Below, piece after piece: positions 1 through 39,057 of a DNA stretch of 61,148 nt; position 1 is the stretch's first letter; every line of letters starts with the position of its first letter. Position numbers and translations under genes: made by a program. Source of the stretch: Alphaproteobacteria bacterium UBA3637 (GTDB lineage: Bacteria; Pseudomonadota; Alphaproteobacteria; CAAHEQ01; UBA3637); assembly GCA_002373615.1 (NCBI GenBank), contig DFKU01000050.1, positions 1 to 61,148 of the forward strand, read 5' to 3'. The notes beneath the pieces were generated by a model. The model made no database searches, was not told the origin of the DNA, and saw nothing but the letters and a program-made list of their open reading frames with translations.

Positions 1-20
1 AAAATTTATTCATTTTTAAA

Positions 21-45
21 GCCCCTTAAAACGGGGCTTTTTTTT
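21..45 (+). terminator. Intrinsic terminator of a gene lying upstream of the window
   Basis: GCCCC(21-25)-loop-GGGGC(33-37) followed by T8. Confidence 0.6.
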
Positions 46-47
46 AC

Positions 48-239
48 TTGACTTTCAATGAAATCTTCACTAGGCTGAAAGGGTATTTTGACAGACGTCA
101 AAATACCGGAACTGAAATTCCAACATTAGAAATCCGTCCTTTGGGCGGATGGTCGCCCAATAAAAAAGAATAAGTGACACTGTTCTAATGCAGTATTTCA
201 GCATCCGTCCACTAAACAAAGTGGAGTTTTTTGTTTTTT
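48..239 (+). promoter_or_regulatory. Promoter plus structured 5' leader (copy A) ending in an intrinsic terminator, upstream of prepilin-like gene 259..1584
   Basis: TTGACT(48-53)-17 nt-TAGGCT(71-76). Hairpins GGTATTTTGAC/GTCAAAATACC and GGAA/TTCC. Long-range pairing GGGCGGATG(143-151)/CATCCGTCC(202-210) encloses CAATA and GAATA. Terminator TCCAC-N8-GTGGA(208-225) plus T-run to 239, then RBS. Confidence 0.5.
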
Positions 240-258
240 AAAAAAGAAAGGATGAAAA

Positions 259-1584
259 ATGAACAAAATTGGTAAATTAGAATCAGGTCGTTCCATGATT
301 GAAATATTGGGGATGTTGGCCGTGATGGGGGTATTAGGGATAACCGGTATTTCAGGATATAATTTAAGCATAAATAAGCACCACGCAAACGAAATTATTA
401 ACTCCGTATCAAAAATGGCAATTTCAGCATCAGGACAATTTATGACTCAAAATACTTTTTCTTTAAATGAATTTAATCATCGAACCGAAAACGGTTATAT
501 TGCATCAGAATTGATTTATGGAAAAGAACCGATTTTTGGTATTCGGATTAAAAATTTACCGAAAGAAATTTGTCAAAAAATTATAGCAACTCATTGGTCA
601 TCCCCCAAGGAAATTGCAATCAACGGAATTGTCATAACAGAAGCATCCAAATGTACAAAAAATGCTACTATTGATTTTATTTTTAGCAAAAATTTGGAAC
701 CAAGTACGTATGAAATAAAACGATGCCAAAATGATAGCCAATGCAGCGGATGTACCTCTTGTCAAAATTATGTTTGTACAGATGGCTGTGCCACAGGAAA
801 ATTGTGCGGAAAAGATATTGAAAATGCTGTTCAAAACACTTGTTGTTCGCAGAGTAATTACCTTGATGGGTTTTGCTGCCGAAAAATTCAAGGAGAATAT
901 TGCTTAAAAAATAATGGCGTTGGATGTCCGGTCGGTTATTTTTGGGGAGAATTAAACGAACAAGAAGGATGCTATTCCTGTGATGAAAATGAATTGATTA
1001 AAATAACATCCCTGTTCCTAAGCAGCTGTCATGTGTGTGATAACAGAGAAGCTATTTTTGGTCAATGTGTTTTACCTGATTACTGTGGCCCCGGACAAAT
1101 TTTACACCGTAATAATCAATGTGATGCCTGTGATTCTAATCAACGTTTAAATATTTCTATGGGGAAAGGCAGAACACGAGCACAATCTGTACGGGATTGC
1201 ATCACAAATTGTGCTGATTACAATCCTAATCGTAAAATTGCCTGCTATCGCACCATTTGGGACGGAACGGGATGCTACTGTTATCCGAATGGTTGTCCAA
1301 CGGGTTCTTCTGATGTGGAAGAAGAAGGTGTCTGCTTATCTTTACCCGGATATTATTACAATTATTACAATGCTGGAAATTTTTCCAAATGTCCCACAAA
1401 TCTTTCTGAAATAGACAATTGGCAATATTGTACAGATGAATGCCATTTAGTGTGGAACACTAACACCAATACCTGCTCTTTTCCAACGGATATCAGTGTA
1501 ATGGACTATCAATGGGGATGCGAAGCAGCCGGAGGTATCTGGTCCGGTGATTCAGATACAAACGGAAAGTGTTTAAGAAAATAA
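259..1584 (+). CDS. Prepilin-type N-terminal domain protein, paralog 1, with a very Cys-rich C-terminal two-thirds
   Basis: N-terminus MNKIGKLESG|RSMIEILGMLAVMGVLGITGISGY: G, then E at +5, then a hydrophobic helix (class III signal). The head domain is alignable to 2345..3526 and 24418..25734 (FGI..., ..ICQ.I...). The remaining ~280 aa are packed with Cys (CxxC, CC, CxC patterns). RBS AAAGGA lies upstream. Confidence 0.75.
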   Translation: MNKIGKLESGRSMIEILGMLAVMGVLGITGISGYNLSINKHHANEIINSVSKMAISASGQFMTQNTFSLNEFNHRTENGYIASELIYGKEPIFGIRIKNLPKEICQKIIATHWSSPKEIAINGIVITEASKCTKNATIDFIFSKNLEPSTYEIKRCQNDSQCSGCTSCQNYVCTDGCATGKLCGKDIENAVQNTCCSQSNYLDGFCCRKIQGEYCLKNNGVGCPVGYFWGELNEQEGCYSCDENELIKITSLFLSSCHVCDNREAIFGQCVLPDYCGPGQILHRNNQCDACDSNQRLNISMGKGRTRAQSVRDCITNCADYNPNRKIACYRTIWDGTGCYCYPNGCPTGSSDVEEEGVCLSLPGYYYNYYNAGNFSKCPTNLSEIDNWQYCTDECHLVWNTNTNTCSFPTDISVMDYQWGCEAAGGIWSGDSDTNGKCLRK

Positions 1585-2172
1585 CTATTCAAATTTTGTC
1601 ATTTGACGTTTCACACGCGCGATTTCTTTAAACAGGTTTTTGGGTGAACGAACAGAGCCGATAAAAGAGACTTGGTTTGGGCGGACCGCTTTATCTTTGA
1701 CCATTTGCATCATAAATTTTAAGACACCATCCCAATAATGATTATAATTCAGAAAAATAACAGGACGGGCCGACCATTCGCCAATTTTAAAGCGCACACC
1801 CATTGTGCCAATTTCATCCAAAGTACCCCAACCGCCGGGGGCCACCAAAACAACCTCCGCACGGGTCACCATGATTTTTTTGCGTTCTTCTAAGGTATCC
1901 ACTAATTTTAATTCGCCTCGTTTAAAAATAGATGGGTCAGCGCATTGTTTTTTTAACAATGGGGGAATCGTCACCCCCAAGACTTTACCGCCGACACTGC
2001 GGGCACCACTGTAGGCCGCCCCCATCATCCCAACATCCCCCACCCCATAAATCAAGGTATAACCTTTTGAGGCAATCAGTTGGCCTGTTTGATACACTTT
2101 TGAATAACAATCAACCGCAATATCGTAATTAGAACTGCCAAAAATCGCCATGGCGGGCGTGTGTTTTTTCAT
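1585..2172 (-). CDS. LOG-family (TIGR00730-type) Rossmann-fold nucleotide-binding protein
   Basis: Motifs GVGDVGMMG and VAPGGWGTLDEIGT (PGGxGTxxE) are typical of lysine-decarboxylase-like/LOG proteins. Confidence 0.75.
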   Translation of the reverse strand: MKKHTPAMAIFGSSNYDIAVDCYSKVYQTGQLIASKGYTLIYGVGDVGMMGAAYSGARSVGGKVLGVTIPPLLKKQCADPSIFKRGELKLVDTLEERKKIMVTRAEVVLVAPGGWGTLDEIGTMGVRFKIGEWSARPVIFLNYNHYWDGVLKFMMQMVKDKAVRPNQVSFIGSVRSPKNLFKEIARVKRQMTKFE

Positions 2173-2183
2173 GTTTCCCCCTT

Positions 2184-2303
2184 TTATTCTTTGACGACAT
2201 AAGTTTCGGGATAGGTAGATCCTGTGGGTCTTTCAGGCTTGGAAATCCGCCCGCATCCCGATAAAATAAAAGCCAATATCATAAGACAAAATATCTGTTT
2301 CAT
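2184..2303 (-). CDS. Small lipoprotein (39 aa), not in the ORF track
   Basis: My translation is MKQIFCLMILAFILSGCGRISKPERPTGSTYPETYVVKE, with lipobox L-S-G-C. It lies immediately upstream of the LOG gene on the same strand. Confidence 0.5.
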   Translation of the reverse strand: MKQIFCLMILAFILSGCGRISKPERPTGSTYPETYVVKE

Positions 2304-2344
2304 GGGGATAGTTTAACGCACCCAAAGGAGCATGTCAAGAAAAA

Positions 2345-3526
2345 TCATTCATCCAGATTTGTTTTGAATTCCCCCGTCCCAGAATTACAGAAAAGTTTTT
2401 TGGTGACGCGATCGAACATACAGGCTTTTCCCTCGCCTTTGGATGATTCGGGCGAAAGAACGGGAATAAGATGCATTCTTTCTTTATTTGTTGACATATC
2501 AATTATTTTTATAGAATAATGTTTTATATATTGCGTTGCACTAGTACTACCTATAACCCAGTCTCCGCTGATTGCATTAAATGTAGGTGTCGCTTTTGTT
2601 ACTCCATCTATATCAAAATGCTCTTTGTATAATTCATAAATATGATGACCAAATATTGTTGATGCTCCCACTGAACCAGCTGATGAACCAAATCTGATAT
2701 AAAAAGTATTTTGTTTGCTTCCAACATCAAAATAAGTGTTCGTTGCTTTTGCAATATAGCAATCACCAGTTGCTTCTGTTCTAATTATCTCACTATCAAA
2801 AATTATTTTATCTGTTTCTAAAGCTGTTAAACCTGTTTCAATTCTATTACCCTTTGCTTCATAGAGTATTTCCAAATACTGAACTCGTTTACAACCATCT
2901 TTACACTTGTGATTTTCTGTATCGCAGACCATACATTCATTTTCGGCGTTGCAATCCGTGTCATCATCACACTCATTGTCTGGTGGTGTGCATTCACTTT
3001 CGCACAAGTGCGTTGTGGAACTACATACCCCACAAACACCACAACTTTCATCACATTCACAATACTGTGTGTCGTTTTTCCCCGTCATATCGTTATTATA
3101 GATAAACAAGAAGCTGTTGTCTTCATCGCAAGAGGTGATGGGCGTGGTTGGGGTAGTTTCCTTACTCAATCGGCGGATGGGGGTGGTGTCTCCAATGGTG
3201 TTTAAAATATTTTGGCAGACGGTTTTTTTAACCCCTGATACCTCTATCCCAAATTGTTTATAAAGCCCCTCTGTTGTCACATCTTCAATAGTTCCGCCAG
3301 AAGTTTGATTTGGGGGATTAAATTCAGCCAGTGAGGGTTCGCGTCCATTAAATCCAATTTGCCCTGCCACAATGACCGCTCGGCGTTGTGCTTCTTGAAT
3401 CAAGGTGTTCGCTCTATTCTTATCCATCGCCACACCATACGCCCAAATTCCCGTAATGGACAGAATACCCATTATCGCCAATGTGCCCAATGTCTCTACT
3501 AAACTCCGTCCTGATTCTGTTTTCAT
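2345..3526 (-). CDS. Prepilin-type N-terminal domain protein, paralog 2, with Cys-rich spacer and a beta-rich C-terminal module
   Basis: MKTESG|RSLVETLGTLAIMGILSITGIWAYG. Conserved head (FGIEVSGVKKTVCQNILNTIGDTTPIRRL...FLFIYNNDM). Cys-rich stretch CECDESCGVCGVC...CKDGC. The ~190-aa C-terminus runs from VQYLE... to ...MFDRVTKKLFCNSGTGEF. Strong RBS AAAGGAGG. Confidence 0.75.
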   Translation of the reverse strand: MKTESGRSLVETLGTLAIMGILSITGIWAYGVAMDKNRANTLIQEAQRRAVIVAGQIGFNGREPSLAEFNPPNQTSGGTIEDVTTEGLYKQFGIEVSGVKKTVCQNILNTIGDTTPIRRLSKETTPTTPITSCDEDNSFLFIYNNDMTGKNDTQYCECDESCGVCGVCSSTTHLCESECTPPDNECDDDTDCNAENECMVCDTENHKCKDGCKRVQYLEILYEAKGNRIETGLTALETDKIIFDSEIIRTEATGDCYIAKATNTYFDVGSKQNTFYIRFGSSAGSVGASTIFGHHIYELYKEHFDIDGVTKATPTFNAISGDWVIGSTSATQYIKHYSIKIIDMSTNKERMHLIPVLSPESSKGEGKACMFDRVTKKLFCNSGTGEFKTNLDE

Positions 3527-3544
3527 TTTTGCCTCCTTTTAAAA

Positions 3545-3779
3545 GTTAAACAAATACTCACTTTGCAGTGAGTGGATGTTAGAAACTATATAGAAAGTAG
3601 ATAGTCTTACCTATTCAGGCAGACGCCTCTATTCGGTAAGCATCCACCCCAAAAGGTAGTGAATGCCCAACCAGGGAATTTGGGTTCCCTTTGTCCTTTC
3701 TATATGGGCTTCTAAACCCACTATCTGAATGGACCATTCAGACAGGGCTATTATAGACTGATTAGTCTTAAAATTTCAA
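3545..3779 (-). promoter_or_regulatory. Promoter plus structured 5' leader (copy B) ending in a terminator, directly upstream of prepilin-like gene 2345..3526
   Basis: On the minus strand: TTGAAA(3779-3774)-18 nt-TATAAT(3755-3750). Hairpins TCTGAATG/CATTCAGA, GGG..GCCC and GGGAA/TTCCC. GGGGTGGATG (plus-strand 3641-3650) pairs with CATCCAC (3572-3578), enclosing CTTACC-GAATAG-AGGC/GCCT-GAATAG-GTAAG. Terminator ACTCAC-N6-GTGAGT (3556-3573). Confidence 0.55.
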
Positions 3780-3868
3780 GTAAAAAATTTACTATTCATA
3801 AAATCTTTACTTTTTTTGAATTTCATGCTATAATACACCTTATTTTATCAGGGAAAAGGAAAATTATT

Positions 3869-5686
3869 ATGAATCAAAATATGCGCAATGTCGCCATTAT
3901 CGCCCACGTGGACCATGGGAAAACAACTTTTGTGGACGCTTTTTTAAAGCAATCCGGCACTTTTCGGGATAACCAACAAGTCGCCACCTGTGCCATGGAT
4001 TCCGGCGATTTGGAACGCGAACGCGGAATCACTATTTTTGCCAAGTGTACCTCGGTTGAATGGCATGGTACACGCATCAACATTGTGGACACCCCGGGAC
4101 ACGCTGACTTTGGAGGTGAGGTGGAACGCATTTTGTCCATGGTGGATGGCGTGATTGTGTTGGTGGATGCGGCGGAAGGGCCCCTGCCCCAAACCAAATT
4201 TGTGGTTGGAAAAGCTTTGAAATTAGGCCTGAAACCCATTGTTGTCATCAATAAAGTGGATCGCGCGGATGCCCGCCCTATGGAAGTCAACAATGAAGTG
4301 TTTGACTTATTTGCCAACTTGGGCGCCACGGATGAACAATTGGACTATCCCATTTTGTTTGCCTCTGGGCGTGAAGGTTGGGCCGTGGAAAATTTAAATG
4401 ACGAGCGCATCAACATTGAACCCCTTTTCCAAAAAATTATTGACCATGTGCCTGCCCCTGTGGTGGATGCCGATGGTCCCTTTAAAATGTTAGTCACCAC
4501 CTTGCACATGGATCCGTTTGTGGGACGCGTGCTGACAGGGCGCATTACTTCAGGCCAGGTCAAAACAAACCAAATGATTAAAGCACTTGACCGCAACGGA
4601 AACGTGGTGGAAACAGCGCGTGTCAGCCGAATTTTGGCGTTCCGCGGGCTCAAGCATCAAGCGATTGAAGAAGGGCTGGCCGGCGATATCGTCAGCATTT
4701 CCGGCTTTCAAAAAGCGACCGTTGCCGATACTTTGTGCGACCAAAGTGTGACTGAGCCCATGCAGGCGCAACCCATTGATCCCCCCACTTTGGCAATGAC
4801 CTTTTCCATCAATACATCACCGCTGGCGGGGCAAGATGGTGACAAAGTGACCTCACGGATGATTTGGGATCGCTTGGAAAAAGAGGCCGAAGGAAATGTG
4901 GCTTTACGGATTTCCCGCACGGATACCACCGATGCCTTTGAAGTGGCAGGGCGTGGCGAATTACAGCTGGGTATTTTGATTGAAACCATGCGCCGAGAAG
5001 GGTATGAGCTGTCCGTTTCCCGTCCGCGTGTGCTGTTCAAAGAAGAAAACGGCCAAAAGTTAGAGCCCATTGAAGAAGTCGTCGTAGATGTGGATGATGC
5101 CTATACCGGTGTGGTCGTGCAAAAGATGAGTGAACGCAAGGCTGAAATGGTGGAAATGACACCCTCCGGTCAAGGAAAGACAAGATTGATTTTCCATGCG
5201 CCGTCGCGGGGGCTCATCGGCTATCACAGCGAATTTTTAACCGATACCTGTGGTACAGGCGTGATGAACCGCATATTCTTGGAATACGCCCCCTATAAAG
5301 GCGATATTCAAACGCGCCACAATGGCGTGCTGATTTCCACTGAAGGCGGGAAGTCTGTGGCCTATGCCCTGTGGTACATTCAAGAACGTGGCCCCTTGTT
5401 TATCGGGGCTGGTGTGGATGTGTATCCAGGAATGATTATTGGCGGTAATGCCAAGATGGGCGATATTGAAGTGAACCCGATTAAAGGGAAAAAACTCACC
5501 AATATGCGTGCGGCAGGAAAAGACGAAGCGGTGGCTTTGGTGCCCCCCACGCAAATGCCTTTGGAAGCAGCACTTTCCTATATTGCGGATGATGAATTGG
5601 TGGAAGTAACCCCAAAGCACATTCGCTTGCGCAAGAAATATTTGGATGCCAATGATCGCCGTAAATTTGAACGCGGAAGATTGTAA
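3869..5686 (+). CDS. typA: Translational GTPase TypA/BipA
   Basis: Full-length 605 aa. AHVDHGKTT, DTPGH and NKVD G-motifs, plus a BipA-type C-terminal domain. Confidence 0.95.
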   Translation: MNQNMRNVAIIAHVDHGKTTFVDAFLKQSGTFRDNQQVATCAMDSGDLERERGITIFAKCTSVEWHGTRINIVDTPGHADFGGEVERILSMVDGVIVLVDAAEGPLPQTKFVVGKALKLGLKPIVVINKVDRADARPMEVNNEVFDLFANLGATDEQLDYPILFASGREGWAVENLNDERINIEPLFQKIIDHVPAPVVDADGPFKMLVTTLHMDPFVGRVLTGRITSGQVKTNQMIKALDRNGNVVETARVSRILAFRGLKHQAIEEGLAGDIVSISGFQKATVADTLCDQSVTEPMQAQPIDPPTLAMTFSINTSPLAGQDGDKVTSRMIWDRLEKEAEGNVALRISRTDTTDAFEVAGRGELQLGILIETMRREGYELSVSRPRVLFKEENGQKLEPIEEVVVDVDDAYTGVVVQKMSERKAEMVEMTPSGQGKTRLIFHAPSRGLIGYHSEFLTDTCGTGVMNRIFLEYAPYKGDIQTRHNGVLISTEGGKSVAYALWYIQERGPLFIGAGVDVYPGMIIGGNAKMGDIEVNPIKGKKLTNMRAAGKDEAVALVPPTQMPLEAALSYIADDELVEVTPKHIRLRKKYLDANDRRKFERGRL

Positions 5687-24417: not shown

Positions 24418-25734
24418 TTATTCACATAAAGCTACAGGGTATGTTGAATACATCAACCATTTTAAATGTGGGTACATTCTTTCATAACCACTGGATTCTA
24501 TTGTTTGAGTATATCCATTAGTACAATCTTTTTCTAAATCCACATGGAATATTCCAATATAAGAACTTCCCAAATTTTCACTTTCCGCATTAAAAGCATT
24601 ATAAATCCATTTATCGCGGGCATTTACATAATCAGGAGTAACATTCGAACAATTTTCCAATGACCGCAATGTTTCTAATGTCACCAAATGCCCCTGATGA
24701 CCATCGATGGTTAACCTTTGACAAAAGTTTTTTGCAGACCAAGAAGTCATTCCCGCTATTGAACGAACAAAGTGTTTCTTTAAATTTTTTTCTTTATTGA
24801 TCCATGCATATACATCTGTGTATGTCGGTATAGGCTGACACGTTCCACGAGTAACTTTCACACATGTGTGAGAAGAATCACTATAATCCCCCTTTTGTTC
24901 GCAGTATTGTTCGGTATTTTCACACCATTGATTTGAGGTGCAATACGACACTTGGCGACACCCTTTGCTTCCATCACTGGACATATCGCAAACTTCATTT
25001 GATTCACAACAAGTATCACCACAAGGGGAACGCTGGTCCCCACAAAGACATTCCCCAGCAAAACAAGATGTTCCATCCATACATGAATCGCAACATTTTT
25101 CTTGACAAGAACCCGCATATTGTCCAACTCTACACCATTCAAATCCTGCAGCGCTACAGGAGATATCATTTATAAATTCCCCTGCGACAGGGTTGGTCGT
25201 CATATCATTATTATAAACCATCAAGAAAGTATTATCATCACCGCAGGTGGTAAGGGCTGTTTTAGGGCTATCCGTTGTTGATAATCTGCGGATAACTGTA
25301 TTATCCCCCAAAGTATTCAGGATATTCTGACAGATTTCTTTGTTCACACCTGATACTTTAATCCCAAATTGGCCTTCAGGTAAATTATCCGCTTTGGTAT
25401 AAACTTTTGCATCAAATATGGCATAACCCAAATTATTATTGGTAAATTCCGTTAAAGTTGGATTAGCATTATTTTGTAATTGAATTTGTGGGACTACCAA
25501 GGTCGCCCGTTTTTGGGCTTCATTGATGATGGTATTCGCTTTATTCTTATCCATCGCATTTTTAAAACCCGCTATTCCTGCAACAGACAAAACACCGATG
25601 ACAGCCAACACGCCCAGCATTTCGACCATGGAACGACCTGATTCTCCGTCATTCTGAGGGCAACACCCGAAGAATCTGATACCAGATCCTTCACTACGTT
25701 CAGGATGACGATATACTTTATAATTTTTACTCAT
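24418..25734 (-). CDS. Prepilin-type N-terminal domain protein, paralog 3, with Cys-rich spacer and a C-type-lectin-like C-terminus
   Basis: Start ATG at 25734 (RBS GGAAAAGG). The leader MSKNYKVYRHPERSEGSGIRFFGCCPQNDGESG|RSMVEMLGVLAVIGVLSVAGIAGF contains an in-frame MITE. Conserved head (FGIKVSGVNKEICQNILNTLGDNTVIRRL...FLMVYNNDM). C-terminus ...MTSWSAKNFCQRL..GHLVTLETL...WIYNAF...YPVALCE. Confidence 0.75.
   Translation of the reverse strand: MSKNYKVYRHPERSEGSGIRFFGCCPQNDGESGRSMVEMLGVLAVIGVLSVAGIAGFKNAMDKNKANTIINEAQKRATLVVPQIQLQNNANPTLTEFTNNNLGYAIFDAKVYTKADNLPEGQFGIKVSGVNKEICQNILNTLGDNTVIRRLSTTDSPKTALTTCGDDNTFLMVYNNDMTTNPVAGEFINDISCSAAGFEWCRVGQYAGSCQEKCCDSCMDGTSCFAGECLCGDQRSPCGDTCCESNEVCDMSSDGSKGCRQVSYCTSNQWCENTEQYCEQKGDYSDSSHTCVKVTRGTCQPIPTYTDVYAWINKEKNLKKHFVRSIAGMTSWSAKNFCQRLTIDGHQGHLVTLETLRSLENCSNVTPDYVNARDKWIYNAFNAESENLGSSYIGIFHVDLEKDCTNGYTQTIESSGYERMYPHLKWLMYSTYPVALCE
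25647..25710. mobile_element. Palindromic MITE-like repeat inserted in frame in the prepilin leader of 24418..25734
   Basis: On the minus strand: CGTCATCCTGAACGTAGTGAAGGATCTGGTATCAGATTCTTCGGGTGTTGCCCTCAGAATGACG. It has terminal inverted repeats and translates to HPERSEGSGIRFFGCCPQND. Confidence 0.6.
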
Positions 25735-25753
25735 TTTATTTACCTTTTCCCTA

Positions 25754-25986
25754 TAAAAAATTGTGCCACTTGGCGTGAAAGTGGCTGGATGTTCAAAACT
25801 ATTCCACAAGTGATAGTGCGGTATATTACTCCGCAGCGGCTTTTATTCTACCGCCATCCAACCAATTGGTTTTCCGGCAGCAAATTACGCATTTACTTTA
25901 GCGCTTGTGGAATGAGGTTTTGAACCCTCTGAACGGACGCCAACCCGTTCATGAAAAAGTTTAGCATAAAGAAAATCCTTTTGCAA
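25754..25986 (-). promoter_or_regulatory. Promoter plus structured 5' leader (copy C) ending in a terminator, upstream of prepilin-like gene 24418..25734
   Basis: On the minus strand: TTGCAA(25986-25981)-17 nt-TAAACT(25963-25958). Hairpin GAACGG/CCGTTC. GGTTGGATG (plus-strand 25855-25863) pairs with CATCCAGCC (25783-25791), enclosing two GAATA motifs. Terminator GCCACTT-N7-AAGTGGC (25765-25785) plus T-run. Confidence 0.5.
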
Positions 25987-26017
25987 CTTTAAAAATGCCC
26001 CCCCCTTAAAAAAGTGC

Positions 26018-26046
26018 TTGCAAAAAGAAAAATTTTCGTGTATAAT
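26018..26046 (+). promoter_or_regulatory. Sigma-70-type promoter of tRNA-Glu
   Basis: TTGCAA(26018-23)-17 nt-TATAAT(26041-46), about 18 nt upstream of the tRNA 5' end. Confidence 0.6.
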
Positions 26047-26064
26047 AAAATGCATTGTTCGACC

Positions 26065-26140
26065 GACCCTATCGTCTAGAGGCCTAGGACATCGCCCTTT
26101 CACGGCGGTAACGCGAGTTCGAATCTCGCTAGGGTCACCA
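26065..26140 (+). tRNA. tRNA-Glu (anticodon UUC)
   Basis: Folded by hand. Acceptor GACCCTA/TAGGGTC. D-arm GTCT-AGAGGCCTA-GGAC. Anticodon stem TCGCC/GGCGG with loop CTTTCAC. T-arm GCGAG-TTCGAAT-CTCGC. CCA is encoded. Confidence 0.92.
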
Positions 26141-26148
26141 AGAATAAG

Positions 26149-26171
26149 CCACCCAAGAGGGTGGATTTTTT
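26149..26171 (+). terminator. Intrinsic terminator after tRNA-Glu
   Basis: CCACCC-AAGA-GGGTGG followed by ATTTTTT. Confidence 0.75.
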
Positions 26172-26279
26172 GTGACCTATATGAGATTTGGCCGAGCAGA
26201 GTTCGTTCATTGAGCAAAAGCGAAATGGACGCCGAAGACGGTCCTAAAGGAACGAGGGATGAGGGATAATATCCCGAAC

Positions 26280-38251: not shown

Positions 38252-38500
38252 TTGCAATTCAAATAAAAATAAAATATAATGTCTTCGTTCGGATCGACCG
38301 TCCGAACTGAGGGAGTAGTAGCCCAAAAATATAGGCGAAAGAAGAATATTCTTTTGTTTGGCATTCACTTCTAAAGTGGAAAATTAAAAACTATCTTTAG
38401 GGTGGATGCCTACCGAATAAGGGTATCTGCCTGAATAAGTAGGGCTATTTCCTATGTTTTAGCTACTAACATCCACTCACTTTAACAGGTGAGTTTTTTT
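38252..38500 (+). ncRNA. Promoter plus structured RNA (copy D of the leader family) ending in a strong intrinsic terminator
   Basis: TTGCAA(38252-57)-17 nt-TATAAT(38275-80). Hairpins GTTCGGA/TCCGAAC, GGG..GCCC and AAGAA/TTCTT. GGGTGGATG(38400-08) pairs with CATCCAC(38470-76), enclosing CCTAC-CGAATAA-GG..CC-TGAATAA-GTAGG. Terminator ACTCAC-N8-GTGAGT plus T7 (38475-38500). Confidence 0.55.
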
Positions 38501-38506
38501 GTAATC

Positions 38507-38571
38507 CGTCATTGCGAGGGCTTTAGCCCGTGGCAATCTGATGAGATTGCTTCACTATCGTTCGCAATGAC
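38507..38571. mobile_element. Palindromic MITE-like repeat
   Basis: CGTCATTGCGAGG...GGCAATCTGATGAGATTGC...TTCGCAATGAC. The two halves are inverted repeats around TGATGA. Confidence 0.6.
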
Positions 38572-38586
38572 AAGAAAGGAGTGAAC

Positions 38587-39057
38587 ATGGAAAAAGTATG
38601 TGTATTTTTTGGTCACAGATTGATACCCAATTCCCAAGAAATTGAGCCACAACTAAAACGCGTGGTTCGGGAGTTGATTAAAGATGGCTTTAATACTTTT
38701 TGGTTGGGTGGGTATGGTGATTTTGACCAATTGGCGCAAAAAGTGACATGGGAATTAAAAAAAGAGTTTCCCTATATTCAACGTGTATTGGCTTTGGCGT
38801 ATTTACCCACGAACAAAGAAGACTATCAATTTAAAAGCCTGTATTATGATATGATGTTTTATCCTGAAGGCGTGGAACTGGGCCCCAAAAAATTCGCAAT
38901 TACCAAGCGCAACCGATACATGGTAGAAAATGCAGATGTGGTGGTGGCCTATGTGAACGCTGAAACAGGGGGGGCAGCGTATGCCTTAAAATACGCAAAA
39001 AAGTTAAATAAAAAAGTGATTGAATTAAAGCCCGATGGACCCAGAGAAAGAAATTGA
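38587..39057 (+). CDS. SLOG-fold / DUF1273-like protein
   Basis: VCVFFGHR......WLGGYGDFD...YMVENADVVVAY fits the DUF1273 (YoqJ/SLOG) pattern. RBS AAAGGAG before the ATG at 38587. Confidence 0.55.
   Translation: MEKVCVFFGHRLIPNSQEIEPQLKRVVRELIKDGFNTFWLGGYGDFDQLAQKVTWELKKEFPYIQRVLALAYLPTNKEDYQFKSLYYDMMFYPEGVELGPKKFAITKRNRYMVENADVVVAYVNAETGGAAYALKYAKKLNKKVIELKPDGPRERN

Follow-up and report, generated by a model that had tools for sequence, protein, structure and literature searches.

Upstream of a prepilin-like gene near the start of a contig from an uncultured alphaproteobacterium, one octamer occurs twice within a short leader, which raises the question of whether its two occurrences compete for a single partner strand and thereby decide if RNA polymerase stops before the gene. 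The window analyzed here (the whole stretch of 61,148 nucleotides) is a contig of a 1.11-Mb assembly that has 41% G+C and is 96.75% complete. By TypA comparison, its nearest relatives are uncultured Alphaproteobacteria from rumen and gut metagenomes, and the host is an uncultured rumen alphaproteobacterium with a genome of approximately 1.1 Mb. We favor reading this leader, hereafter copy A, as a transcription attenuator with three layers that is OFF by default and whose fold resembles those of c4 and sRNA-Xcc1; with no transcript data available, we place its probability at roughly 0.6.

The surroundings of copy A are those of a separate unit. A strong terminator-like hairpin with a T-run (18-47, AAAGCCCC...GGGGCTTT) closes the upstream transcription unit and ends 1 nt before the -35 hexamer, so the leader is insulated. 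A consensus promoter scan rejects the promoter-like elements of copy A (Table 1), whose -10 hexamer matches at only 3 of 6 positions; the promoter at 48-76 is thus inferred only, and it appears weaker than in most copies. Downstream, the product of the ORF at 259-1584 has the N-terminus ...ESG/RSMIEILGMLAVMGVLGI, in which Gly is followed by Glu at +5 and a hydrophobic helix. The Pfam search of the downstream ORFs gave no match to a pilin domain, and the label "prepilin-like" therefore rests on the motif alone. We also note an exact 10-nt direct repeat, TAAAAAAGAA, in the P2 loop (161-170) and just 5' of the Shine-Dalgarno sequence (239-248); it is A-rich and may have arisen by chance.

The octamer ATCCGTCC has two exact occurrences in the 61-kb window (1.11 expected), both inside the copy A leader and 71 nt apart. 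A repeat search returned the direct repeat 132-139/203-210 as well as the inverted repeats 142-151/202-211 and 208-213/220-225. The strand GGGCGGAU(G) at 143-151 can pair with either AUCCGUCC at 132-139 or CAUCCGUCC at 202-210, the two alternatives that the sequence-only reading had proposed for 143-150, and both pairings covary over 57 copies. Its further claim of a terminator hairpin followed by a U-run agrees with a terminator scan, which reports 208-225 with the T tail GTTTTTTGTT; the site lies between promoter and start codon, as the intrinsic-attenuator criterion demands, and the scan returned 2 sites in positions 1-400 against 0.3 expected. UCC at 208-210 leaves the terminator stem (208-213/220-225) only when the long-range helix forms, again as proposed. 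In isolation, the local hairpin has a calculated energy of -10.6, the long-range duplex -14.5, and the terminator -6.7 kcal/mol. A second local hairpin, 141-147/154-160 (TTGGGCG with CGCCCAA), rivals the U arm for the same G-run, and in the predicted ensemble of copy A it reaches 0.67 versus 0.27 for the hairpin 132-139/143-150. Either local hairpin, once formed, keeps 143-151 away from 202-210.

Table 1. Positions of the copy A features in the window, and of the second Xcc1-like elements elsewhere in the genome (given as contig:positions).
Feature	Position	Strand	Basis
Promoter-like elements: TTGACT 48-53, 17-nt spacer, TAGGCT 71-76	48-76	+	Position matches TTGACA-N17-TAnnnT of paralogs
P0, 5' hairpin GGTATTTTGAC / GTCAAAATACC, 11 bp, loop AGAC	82-107	+	Fold and inverted repeat
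Small hairpin h (GGAA/TTCC); loop CTGAAAT 112-118 = a1	108-121	+	Minimum-energy fold; inverted repeat
b1, CATTAGAA	124-131	+	Inverted repeat; complement of P3 loop TTCTAATG 183-190
U arm, ATCCGTCC	132-139	+	Upstream partner of 143-150, loop TTT 140-142; -10.6 kcal/mol; covaries with P1 5' strand across sequence classes
P1 5' strand, GGGCGGATG, contested strand	143-151	+	57-core alignment; GGGCGGAT = 143-150, G151 = ninth pair
P2 hairpin, GTCGC 152-156 / GTGAC 174-178	152-178	+	94.1% paired, 6/6 pairs change on both sides
P3 hairpin, ACTG/CAGT, 8-nt loop TTCTAATG 183-190 (b')	179-194	+	86.3% paired; G-C to A-U exchange, columns 58/78
Junction J3/1, ATTTCAG (a')	195-201	+	57-core alignment; inverted repeat
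P1 3' strand, CATCCGTCC	202-210	+	Last 3 nt (208-210) double as terminator stem start
Intrinsic-terminator-like hairpin, TCCACT 208-213 / AGTGGA 220-225, 6 bp, loop AAACAA	208-239	+	Terminator scan; tail GTTTTTTGTTTTTT 226-239
Shine-Dalgarno AAAGGA 247-252 and ATG 259-261 of prepilin-like ORF 259-1584	247-261	+	Sequence
Second Xcc1-like elements	C5:2211-2300 (L004:1591-1680), C60:27926-27998, C33:17497-17570, C64:12302-12370		

Copy A belongs to a large family. A search of the 1.11-Mb genome found 60 leader copies with an nhmmer profile and 64 with a covariance model, most of them 10-30 nt 5' of prepilin-like ORFs, a distance into which a second promoter would not fit. The ORFs behind most copies encode a short or extended leader peptide followed by G/RSM[IV]E[MI]LG and a hydrophobic helix; they, too, can be called prepilin-like by motif only, having no Pfam match. 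Of the remaining copies, some lie 5' of small lipoprotein ORFs and some 5' of YpsA/SLOG genes. When the covariance model was run on 24 sampled genomes of the same family, the element was found in 22, with 1-39 copies each, and at E<=1e-5 it was found in none of 16 genomes from other families of the class. The sequence-only reading had called copy A the shortest and most divergent copy, which is so among the four copies in the window, but does not extend to the genome, where approximately 16 short leaders without the inner P2 hairpin form the copy A subtype. At least 18 leaders of this subtype occur in related genomes. The nearest homolog of copy A (L088) is 87% identical, and its P1 has a C-A mismatch. 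We found no description of the leader family in the literature searched.

Several further features accompany the copies. Behind leader copy D, whose core spans 38400-38481, lie first a palindromic repeat (about 38508-38570) and then a YpsA/SLOG-family gene (38581-39057; Pfam PF06908, 30.1 bits). Since three further SLOG-like ORFs in the genome also have a leader, the regulon is not confined to pilin-like genes. At 25647-25710 (minus strand) of the window, and in many pilin-like ORFs, the leader peptides include palindromic repeat elements translated in frame, e.g. ...RHPERSEGSGIRFFGCCPQNDG... and ...SAGSSGSADAAPRMTE..., which lengthen the pre-cleavage leader to tens of residues. Additionally, four short-type leaders have a second Xcc1-like element directly after their terminator (Table 1), without any 5' anti-antiterminator region (for example GGGCGGTG...CGCCGCCC). 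P1 of these second elements shows compensatory changes between copies and no ORF follows them; the unit behind the one on C5 carries a promoter of its own and resembles secE-nusG. They look like stand-alone small-RNA genes under leader control.

Whether the proposed helices are real was judged on an alignment of 57 cores. We would like to note that these are paralogs related by descent, so that counts overstate independence. P1 (143-151/202-210), P2 (152-156/174-178) and P3 (179-182/191-194) are paired in 93.8% of cells, with 14 of 20 pairs changing on both sides; the covariation score was reached by none of 500 shuffles, and pairing fell to 32-55% when the structure was slid by 1-3 columns. 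In P1 alone, pairing reaches 97.7%, with two-sided changes in 5 of the 9 pairs, through exchanges such as GGGCGGAUG/CAUCCGUCC, GGGUGGAUG/CAUCCACUC, GGUUGGAAG/CUUCCAACC and GGCCGGAUG/CAUCCGGUC. RNAalifold independently recovers P1 and P2. The sequence 5' of P1 shifts along with the P1 5' strand (UCCGUCC, GCAUUCACC, UUCCAACC, UCCAGCC, UUCCGGC). Among the short-type copies, most of the variation in P1 and the U arm is G-U wobble, and the double compensatory changes stem from comparisons between subtypes, i.e. among related and non-independent paralogs.

To guard against the bias of selecting the best complement, the partners from the same copy were compared with those from other copies by an identical search procedure. 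Paired with its downstream partner, the P1 5' strand reaches -14.85 kcal/mol in its own copy versus -9.60 kcal/mol in other classes (own better in 57/57), and with the upstream 40 nt it reaches -10.79 versus -7.87 kcal/mol (own better in 47/57). A class-level permutation gave p<1e-4 for the upstream and downstream partners alike. A probe of P3 plus junction against the upstream region yielded -19.95 kcal/mol for its own copy versus -13.92 for others, the own copy being the best of 54 in 22 copies. Upstream stretches of 7 nt or more that exactly complement the P3 loop (b1) are present in 78% of own-copy comparisons and 6.9% of other-copy ones. In the short-type leaders of related genomes (n=18), the b1 match is found in 14/18 versus 5.6% for other copies, the U arm makes 6-9 bp in all 18, and P1 has 9 of 9 pairs in all 18. 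Alignment of whole short-type leaders with MAFFT misaligned the variable helices, and anchor-based parsing with the own-copy and other-copy tests was used instead. In one large class (GGUUGGAUGG), the upstream strand targets P2 or the inner hairpin instead, as judged by eye, and so reaches the same outcome in another way. The covariation shows that the helices of both sets exist, and the two sets exclude each other.

These counts bear on the simplest objection, namely that a promoter region was recently duplicated, leaving the octamer repeat and the hairpins as by-products that play no part in any structure. Shared descent does make the common features of the paralogs non-independent. Nevertheless, compensatory changes are seen in P1, P2, P3 and the anti-antiterminator contacts, folding energies lie far below those of shuffled sequences (z = -5.4 for copy A, -7.1 for copy B and -4.9 for copy C), and the element is kept across nearly all sampled genomes of the family. 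The covariation counts already contradict this explanation, and we give it practically no credence.

The core and the 5' region of copy A contain more than the arms first described. The P2 loop motifs AAUA (159-162) and GAAUA (168-172) are invariant or nearly so and are shared with the RF02221 consensus, whereas the P3 loop is hypervariable even among near-identical copies. Two 5' segments, 112-118 and 124-131, which were absent from the sequence-only reading, pair with the core junction and the P3 loop. The a1 loop CUGAAAU is complementary to the junction AUUUCAG (195-201), and loop and junction covary in the short-type copies; b1, as RNA CAUUAGAA, pairs with the entire P3 loop UUCUAAUG. The 5' hairpin P0 was found in all paralogs, with differing sequences. 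A pseudoknot combining H1 (112-131 with 183-201) and P1 was considered and rejected: the helices cross, with zero linker between 201 and 202, and therefore cannot coexist, which leaves three layers of terminator, antiterminator and anti-antiterminator. The sequence-only reading was thus incomplete rather than wrong, in that its local hairpin is one of three anti-antiterminator contacts, its long-range helix closes a three-helix core, and the terminator is favored by default.

A separate observation concerns the ribosome-binding site, where GGAUG (250-254) is complementary to CAUCC (202-206), with which the P1 3' strand begins. Copies with CATCC have GGATG (4:0), those with CTTCC have GGAAG (5:0), and those with xCTCC carry GGAG; helices between the P1 3' strand and the ribosome-binding site are slightly longer in the own copy (3.69 nt) than in other copies (3.24 nt; p=0.012, uncorrected for relatedness). 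In the terminator state, this pairing could add control of translation as a second layer.

A hairpin stands 3' of the core in all 57 copies, and the P1 3' strand shares 2-9 nt with its 5' arm in every one of them (3 nt or more in 51/57). The 9 nt that follow the RNAfold stem contain 5 T or more in 31/57, a count that suffers where RNAfold adds an outer helix. When core and terminator are folded without the 5' region, P1 appears in the minimum-energy fold of 30/57 with a mean pair probability of 0.52; in the core alone it appears in 57/57 (mean probability 0.94), and in full leaders in 0/57. Termination is therefore the predicted default. Forcing P1 on the full leaders costs 13.5 kcal/mol on average (range 2.0-24.2). 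For copy A, the cost is 6.7 kcal/mol on the transcript 83-240, 4.8 on a construct starting at the promoter and 4.3 on a transcript ending at 213, which is the decision point, the energy gap being the smallest of its subtype; the full-leader ensemble gives the terminator a probability of 0.97 and P1 about 0. By thermodynamic inference, then, the 5' region would tip an otherwise balanced choice towards termination, and the co-transcriptional order agrees, the U arm being transcribed ahead of its rival. The claim that copy A follows terminator/antiterminator logic accordingly holds in the parts that sequence can test (both partners compensatory, overlap in 57/57, folds exclusive), and these parts do not extend to actual switching.

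The size of the energy gap is also relevant to the idea of a small-molecule riboswitch, in which a hypothetical metabolite would bind the core at the AAUA...GAAUA loop and the U-rich junction and stabilize P1, allowing read-through. Ligand-binding energies are typically below 13.5 kcal/mol, so that the mean gap, which rises to 24 kcal/mol in individual copies, exceeds what a ligand would usually supply. The core does have highly conserved unpaired nucleotides and the geometry of an ON-switch, and LOG and YpsA/SLOG genes, with nucleotide-related folds, lie beside or downstream of copies. On the other hand, the conserved nucleotides are common to canonical Xcc1 RNAs with their antisense-RNA layout, and the regulated genes (about 50 different adhesin-like pilins, and lipoproteins) suggest no shared metabolite. 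No riboswitch family was detected at the gathering threshold in the window or at E<=10 around the copies. We consider this explanation highly improbable.

In the attenuator that we favor, the first layer would be the terminator, the hairpin 208-213/220-225 with its U-run, and the second the antiterminator, in which P1 closes the P1-P2-P3 core and withdraws UCC 208-210 from the terminator stem. As the third layer, the 5' region would disarm the core at three points: 132-139 (alternatively 154-160 in copy A) would capture the P1 5' strand once it is made, 124-131 the P3 loop, and the loop 112-118 the junction 195-201. With these contacts in place, 202-210 would be left without a partner, the terminator would form, and RNA polymerase would stop at about 232-239. 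Read-through into the pilin-like gene would need the 5' strand to be neutralized, either cut off or masked by an RNA or protein, upon which P1 could form. That termination occurs, that it is regulated, and that the target of a trigger is the 5' region and not the core are all inferred only. Copy A has weak points in its short terminator stem (6 bp, -6.7 kcal/mol) and its poor -10 hexamer.

We have no candidate trigger, but the energy gap and the core nucleotides inherited from antisense RNAs favor removal or masking of the 5' strand over a small-molecule ligand. Neither Hfq nor a ProQ/FinO domain was found in this 96.75%-complete genome with more than 60 copies of an sRNA-like element, and a mechanism dependent on Hfq or ProQ was rejected on that ground. 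RNase P RNA is present (C76:1716-2096). Leader-peptide attenuation was likewise rejected, there being no AUG between the likely transcription start at about 83 and position 210; a 41-aa ORF at 48-173 begins at the -35 hexamer. RNAs acting as "keys" in trans were also discarded, as the longer P3-loop sequences have no genomic copies beyond themselves and their own b1.

One form of masking would be supplied by the element itself. Using the P3 loop and junction that are specific to its locus, the mature core might bind in trans to a1/b1 on transcripts still being made there, masking the anti-antiterminator; the resulting positive feedback would be bistable, would work locus by locus, and would lock a locus ON. 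For each P3 loop, the genome offers a single complement, the b1 upstream of it; a 15-20 bp RNA duplex would cover the energy gap; and in six near-identical long-type copies an excess of variable columns falls in a1, b1, a' and b' (21/37 vs 61/201, p=0.003). The case is nonetheless purely inferential. The unique complement and the variable columns allow trans action and do not show it, the excess variability fits equally well with helices drifting freely with compensation, and both an initial escape event and a processing step would be required, with no evidence for either. We regard such self-addressing as quite doubtful; if true, it would amount to RNA-based phase variation of about 50 pilin-like adhesins with no DNA rearrangement and no protein regulator.

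Should the three-layer attenuator hold, the antisense-RNA fold of phage immunity (c4) and mobile elements (sRNA-Xcc1) would have been re-used as the antiterminator domain of a cis attenuator and multiplied, in a reduced genome, to about 1 copy per 18 kb, fronting an extensive set of genes for surface proteins. RNA switches forming a family the size of a regulon, each copy with variable segments of its own, would be a rare case, and this one would offer a handle on how adhesin and pilin diversity is controlled in uncultured gut Alphaproteobacteria. Moreover, sRNA-Xcc1, for which we found no defined mechanism in the literature, would gain a testable mechanistic context.

Among known RNAs, sRNA-Xcc1 is the one to which the leaders can be compared most directly. 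An Rfam scan returned nothing but a tRNA at gathering thresholds and only sub-threshold sRNA-Xcc1 (RF02221) at E<=10. Copies A and C align with it end to end at 34.5 and 33.0 bits, short of the gathering score of 53; genome-wide, 6 copies match at 22.8-35 bits (best 35), and copy B has no match at E<=10. The full-length alignments and the 57-core covariation show the RF02221 architecture, with the closing helix, P2 with its AAUA/GAAUA loop, the P3 hairpin and the U-rich junction. In the reverse search, the leader-family model placed its best match on the Xcc1 element in all 12 bona fide Xcc1 loci from other Pseudomonadota, with modest scores of 12-28 bits and E<0.002 in 5/12. Both families have a 9-bp closing helix, P2 with AAUA...GAAUA around an optional inner hairpin, P3, a U-rich junction, an RC-type tail and an upstream b1 complementary to the P3 loop. 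Only the leader family has the U arm, the extended 5' helix, an intrinsic terminator overlapping P1 and 60-64 copies per genome, and, within a single family of gut Alphaproteobacteria, it precedes genes for pilin-like proteins and lipoproteins, whereas sRNA-Xcc1 is found in Xanthomonas integron cassettes, prophages and genomic islands.

The two also differ downstream. At the canonical Xcc1 loci (L117-L128, element at about 1500-1587), a P3-loop complement of at least 7 nt lies at or next to the Shine-Dalgarno sequence or AUG of the next gene, around the spacer that separates them, in 9/12, which is the b2 site that the leader family lacks, and a second complement lies approximately 60-90 nt upstream in 10/12. 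Going by sequence, the canonical loci have the a1/b1 - c4 - a2/b2 layout, i.e. are c4-like, which we did not find stated in the literature searched; by eye, several ORFs after the elements look like Bro-N-like antirepressors. In the leader family, a search of the 100-110 nt after the terminator for complements of the P3 loop and junction gave equal results for own and other copies, with P3-loop complements in 5/54 own-copy comparisons (9%) and in 10% of other-copy ones. A candidate c4-type target in cis, ATTAGAA at 286-292 of copy A, was dismissed as being at chance level, with own-copy matches equal to other-copy ones.

This comparison allows the element to be read primarily as a c4-like small-RNA gene. 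The promoter would drive a precursor that never passes the terminator, the 5' region would serve in cis as a "safety catch" comparable to a1/b1 of phage P1, processing at the 5' side (e.g. by RNase P at the P1 GG) would free the mature P1-P2-P3 RNA, and the downstream gene would be expressed by constant leak-through. Apart from the reciprocal, sub-threshold similarity to sRNA-Xcc1 and the c4 layout of bona fide Xcc1 loci, with b1 upstream and b2 at the ribosome-binding site, this reading can draw on the folding of the isolated core into P1 in every copy, on the GG that opens P1 in 56/57 copies as at the c4 RNase P site (PMC5320573; we have no read data on cleavage), on the RNase P RNA in the genome, and on the four short-type leaders that precede a second Xcc1-like element and no ORF. 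Against it, there is no own-copy b2/a2 target downstream (9% vs 10%; median rank 19 of 54), the P3-loop sequences have no additional genomic copies, about 50 genes rely on transcription passing through the leader, and the overlap of P1 and terminator, which a pure sRNA gene would not need, is kept in 57/57. We hold it to be unlikely, and return to the attenuator for the remaining comparisons.

The leader family resembles C4 antisense RNA (RF01695) in being a three-helix RNA co-transcribed 5' of the gene it would control, with upstream a1/b1 complements and GG at the start of P1. C4 has downstream a2/b2 sites that the leader family lacks, and no match to RF01695 was found at E<=10 in 1-3900 or 25400-26200. 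The read-out differs as well: that of c4 is reportedly a translational block with Rho-dependent polarity (the mechanism is ascribed to Citron & Schuster 1990 and Biere et al. 1992), while the leader family would use an intrinsic terminator. In phages P1 and P7, the c4 architecture is a1/b1 - c4 - a2/b2, with an RNase P site at the GG opening P1 (PMC5320573). The Group 1 c4-like sRNAs of Acinetobacter baumannii form a large multi-copy family in one genome and are apparently processed from longer transcripts (PMC5320573); like the leader family, they present many c4-derived RNAs per bacterial genome, but they are described as stand-alone sRNAs with variable a' regions and not as terminator-competing leaders 5' of a protein family. 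With S-box (SAM-I) and trp-type leaders, the leader family shares nested exclusive helices and an antiterminator that uses nucleotides of the terminator 5' arm. Its sequence and fold are unrelated to theirs, there is no Rfam match and no leader peptide (no AUG in 83-210), and here the antiterminator itself forms the conserved, structured domain, with a hypervariable 5' strand as anti-antiterminator. With the upstream sites kept, the downstream sites missing and no RF01695 match, we file the leader family as distantly related to the Xcc1/c4 class, from which its read-out would differ, and as a member of neither Rfam family.
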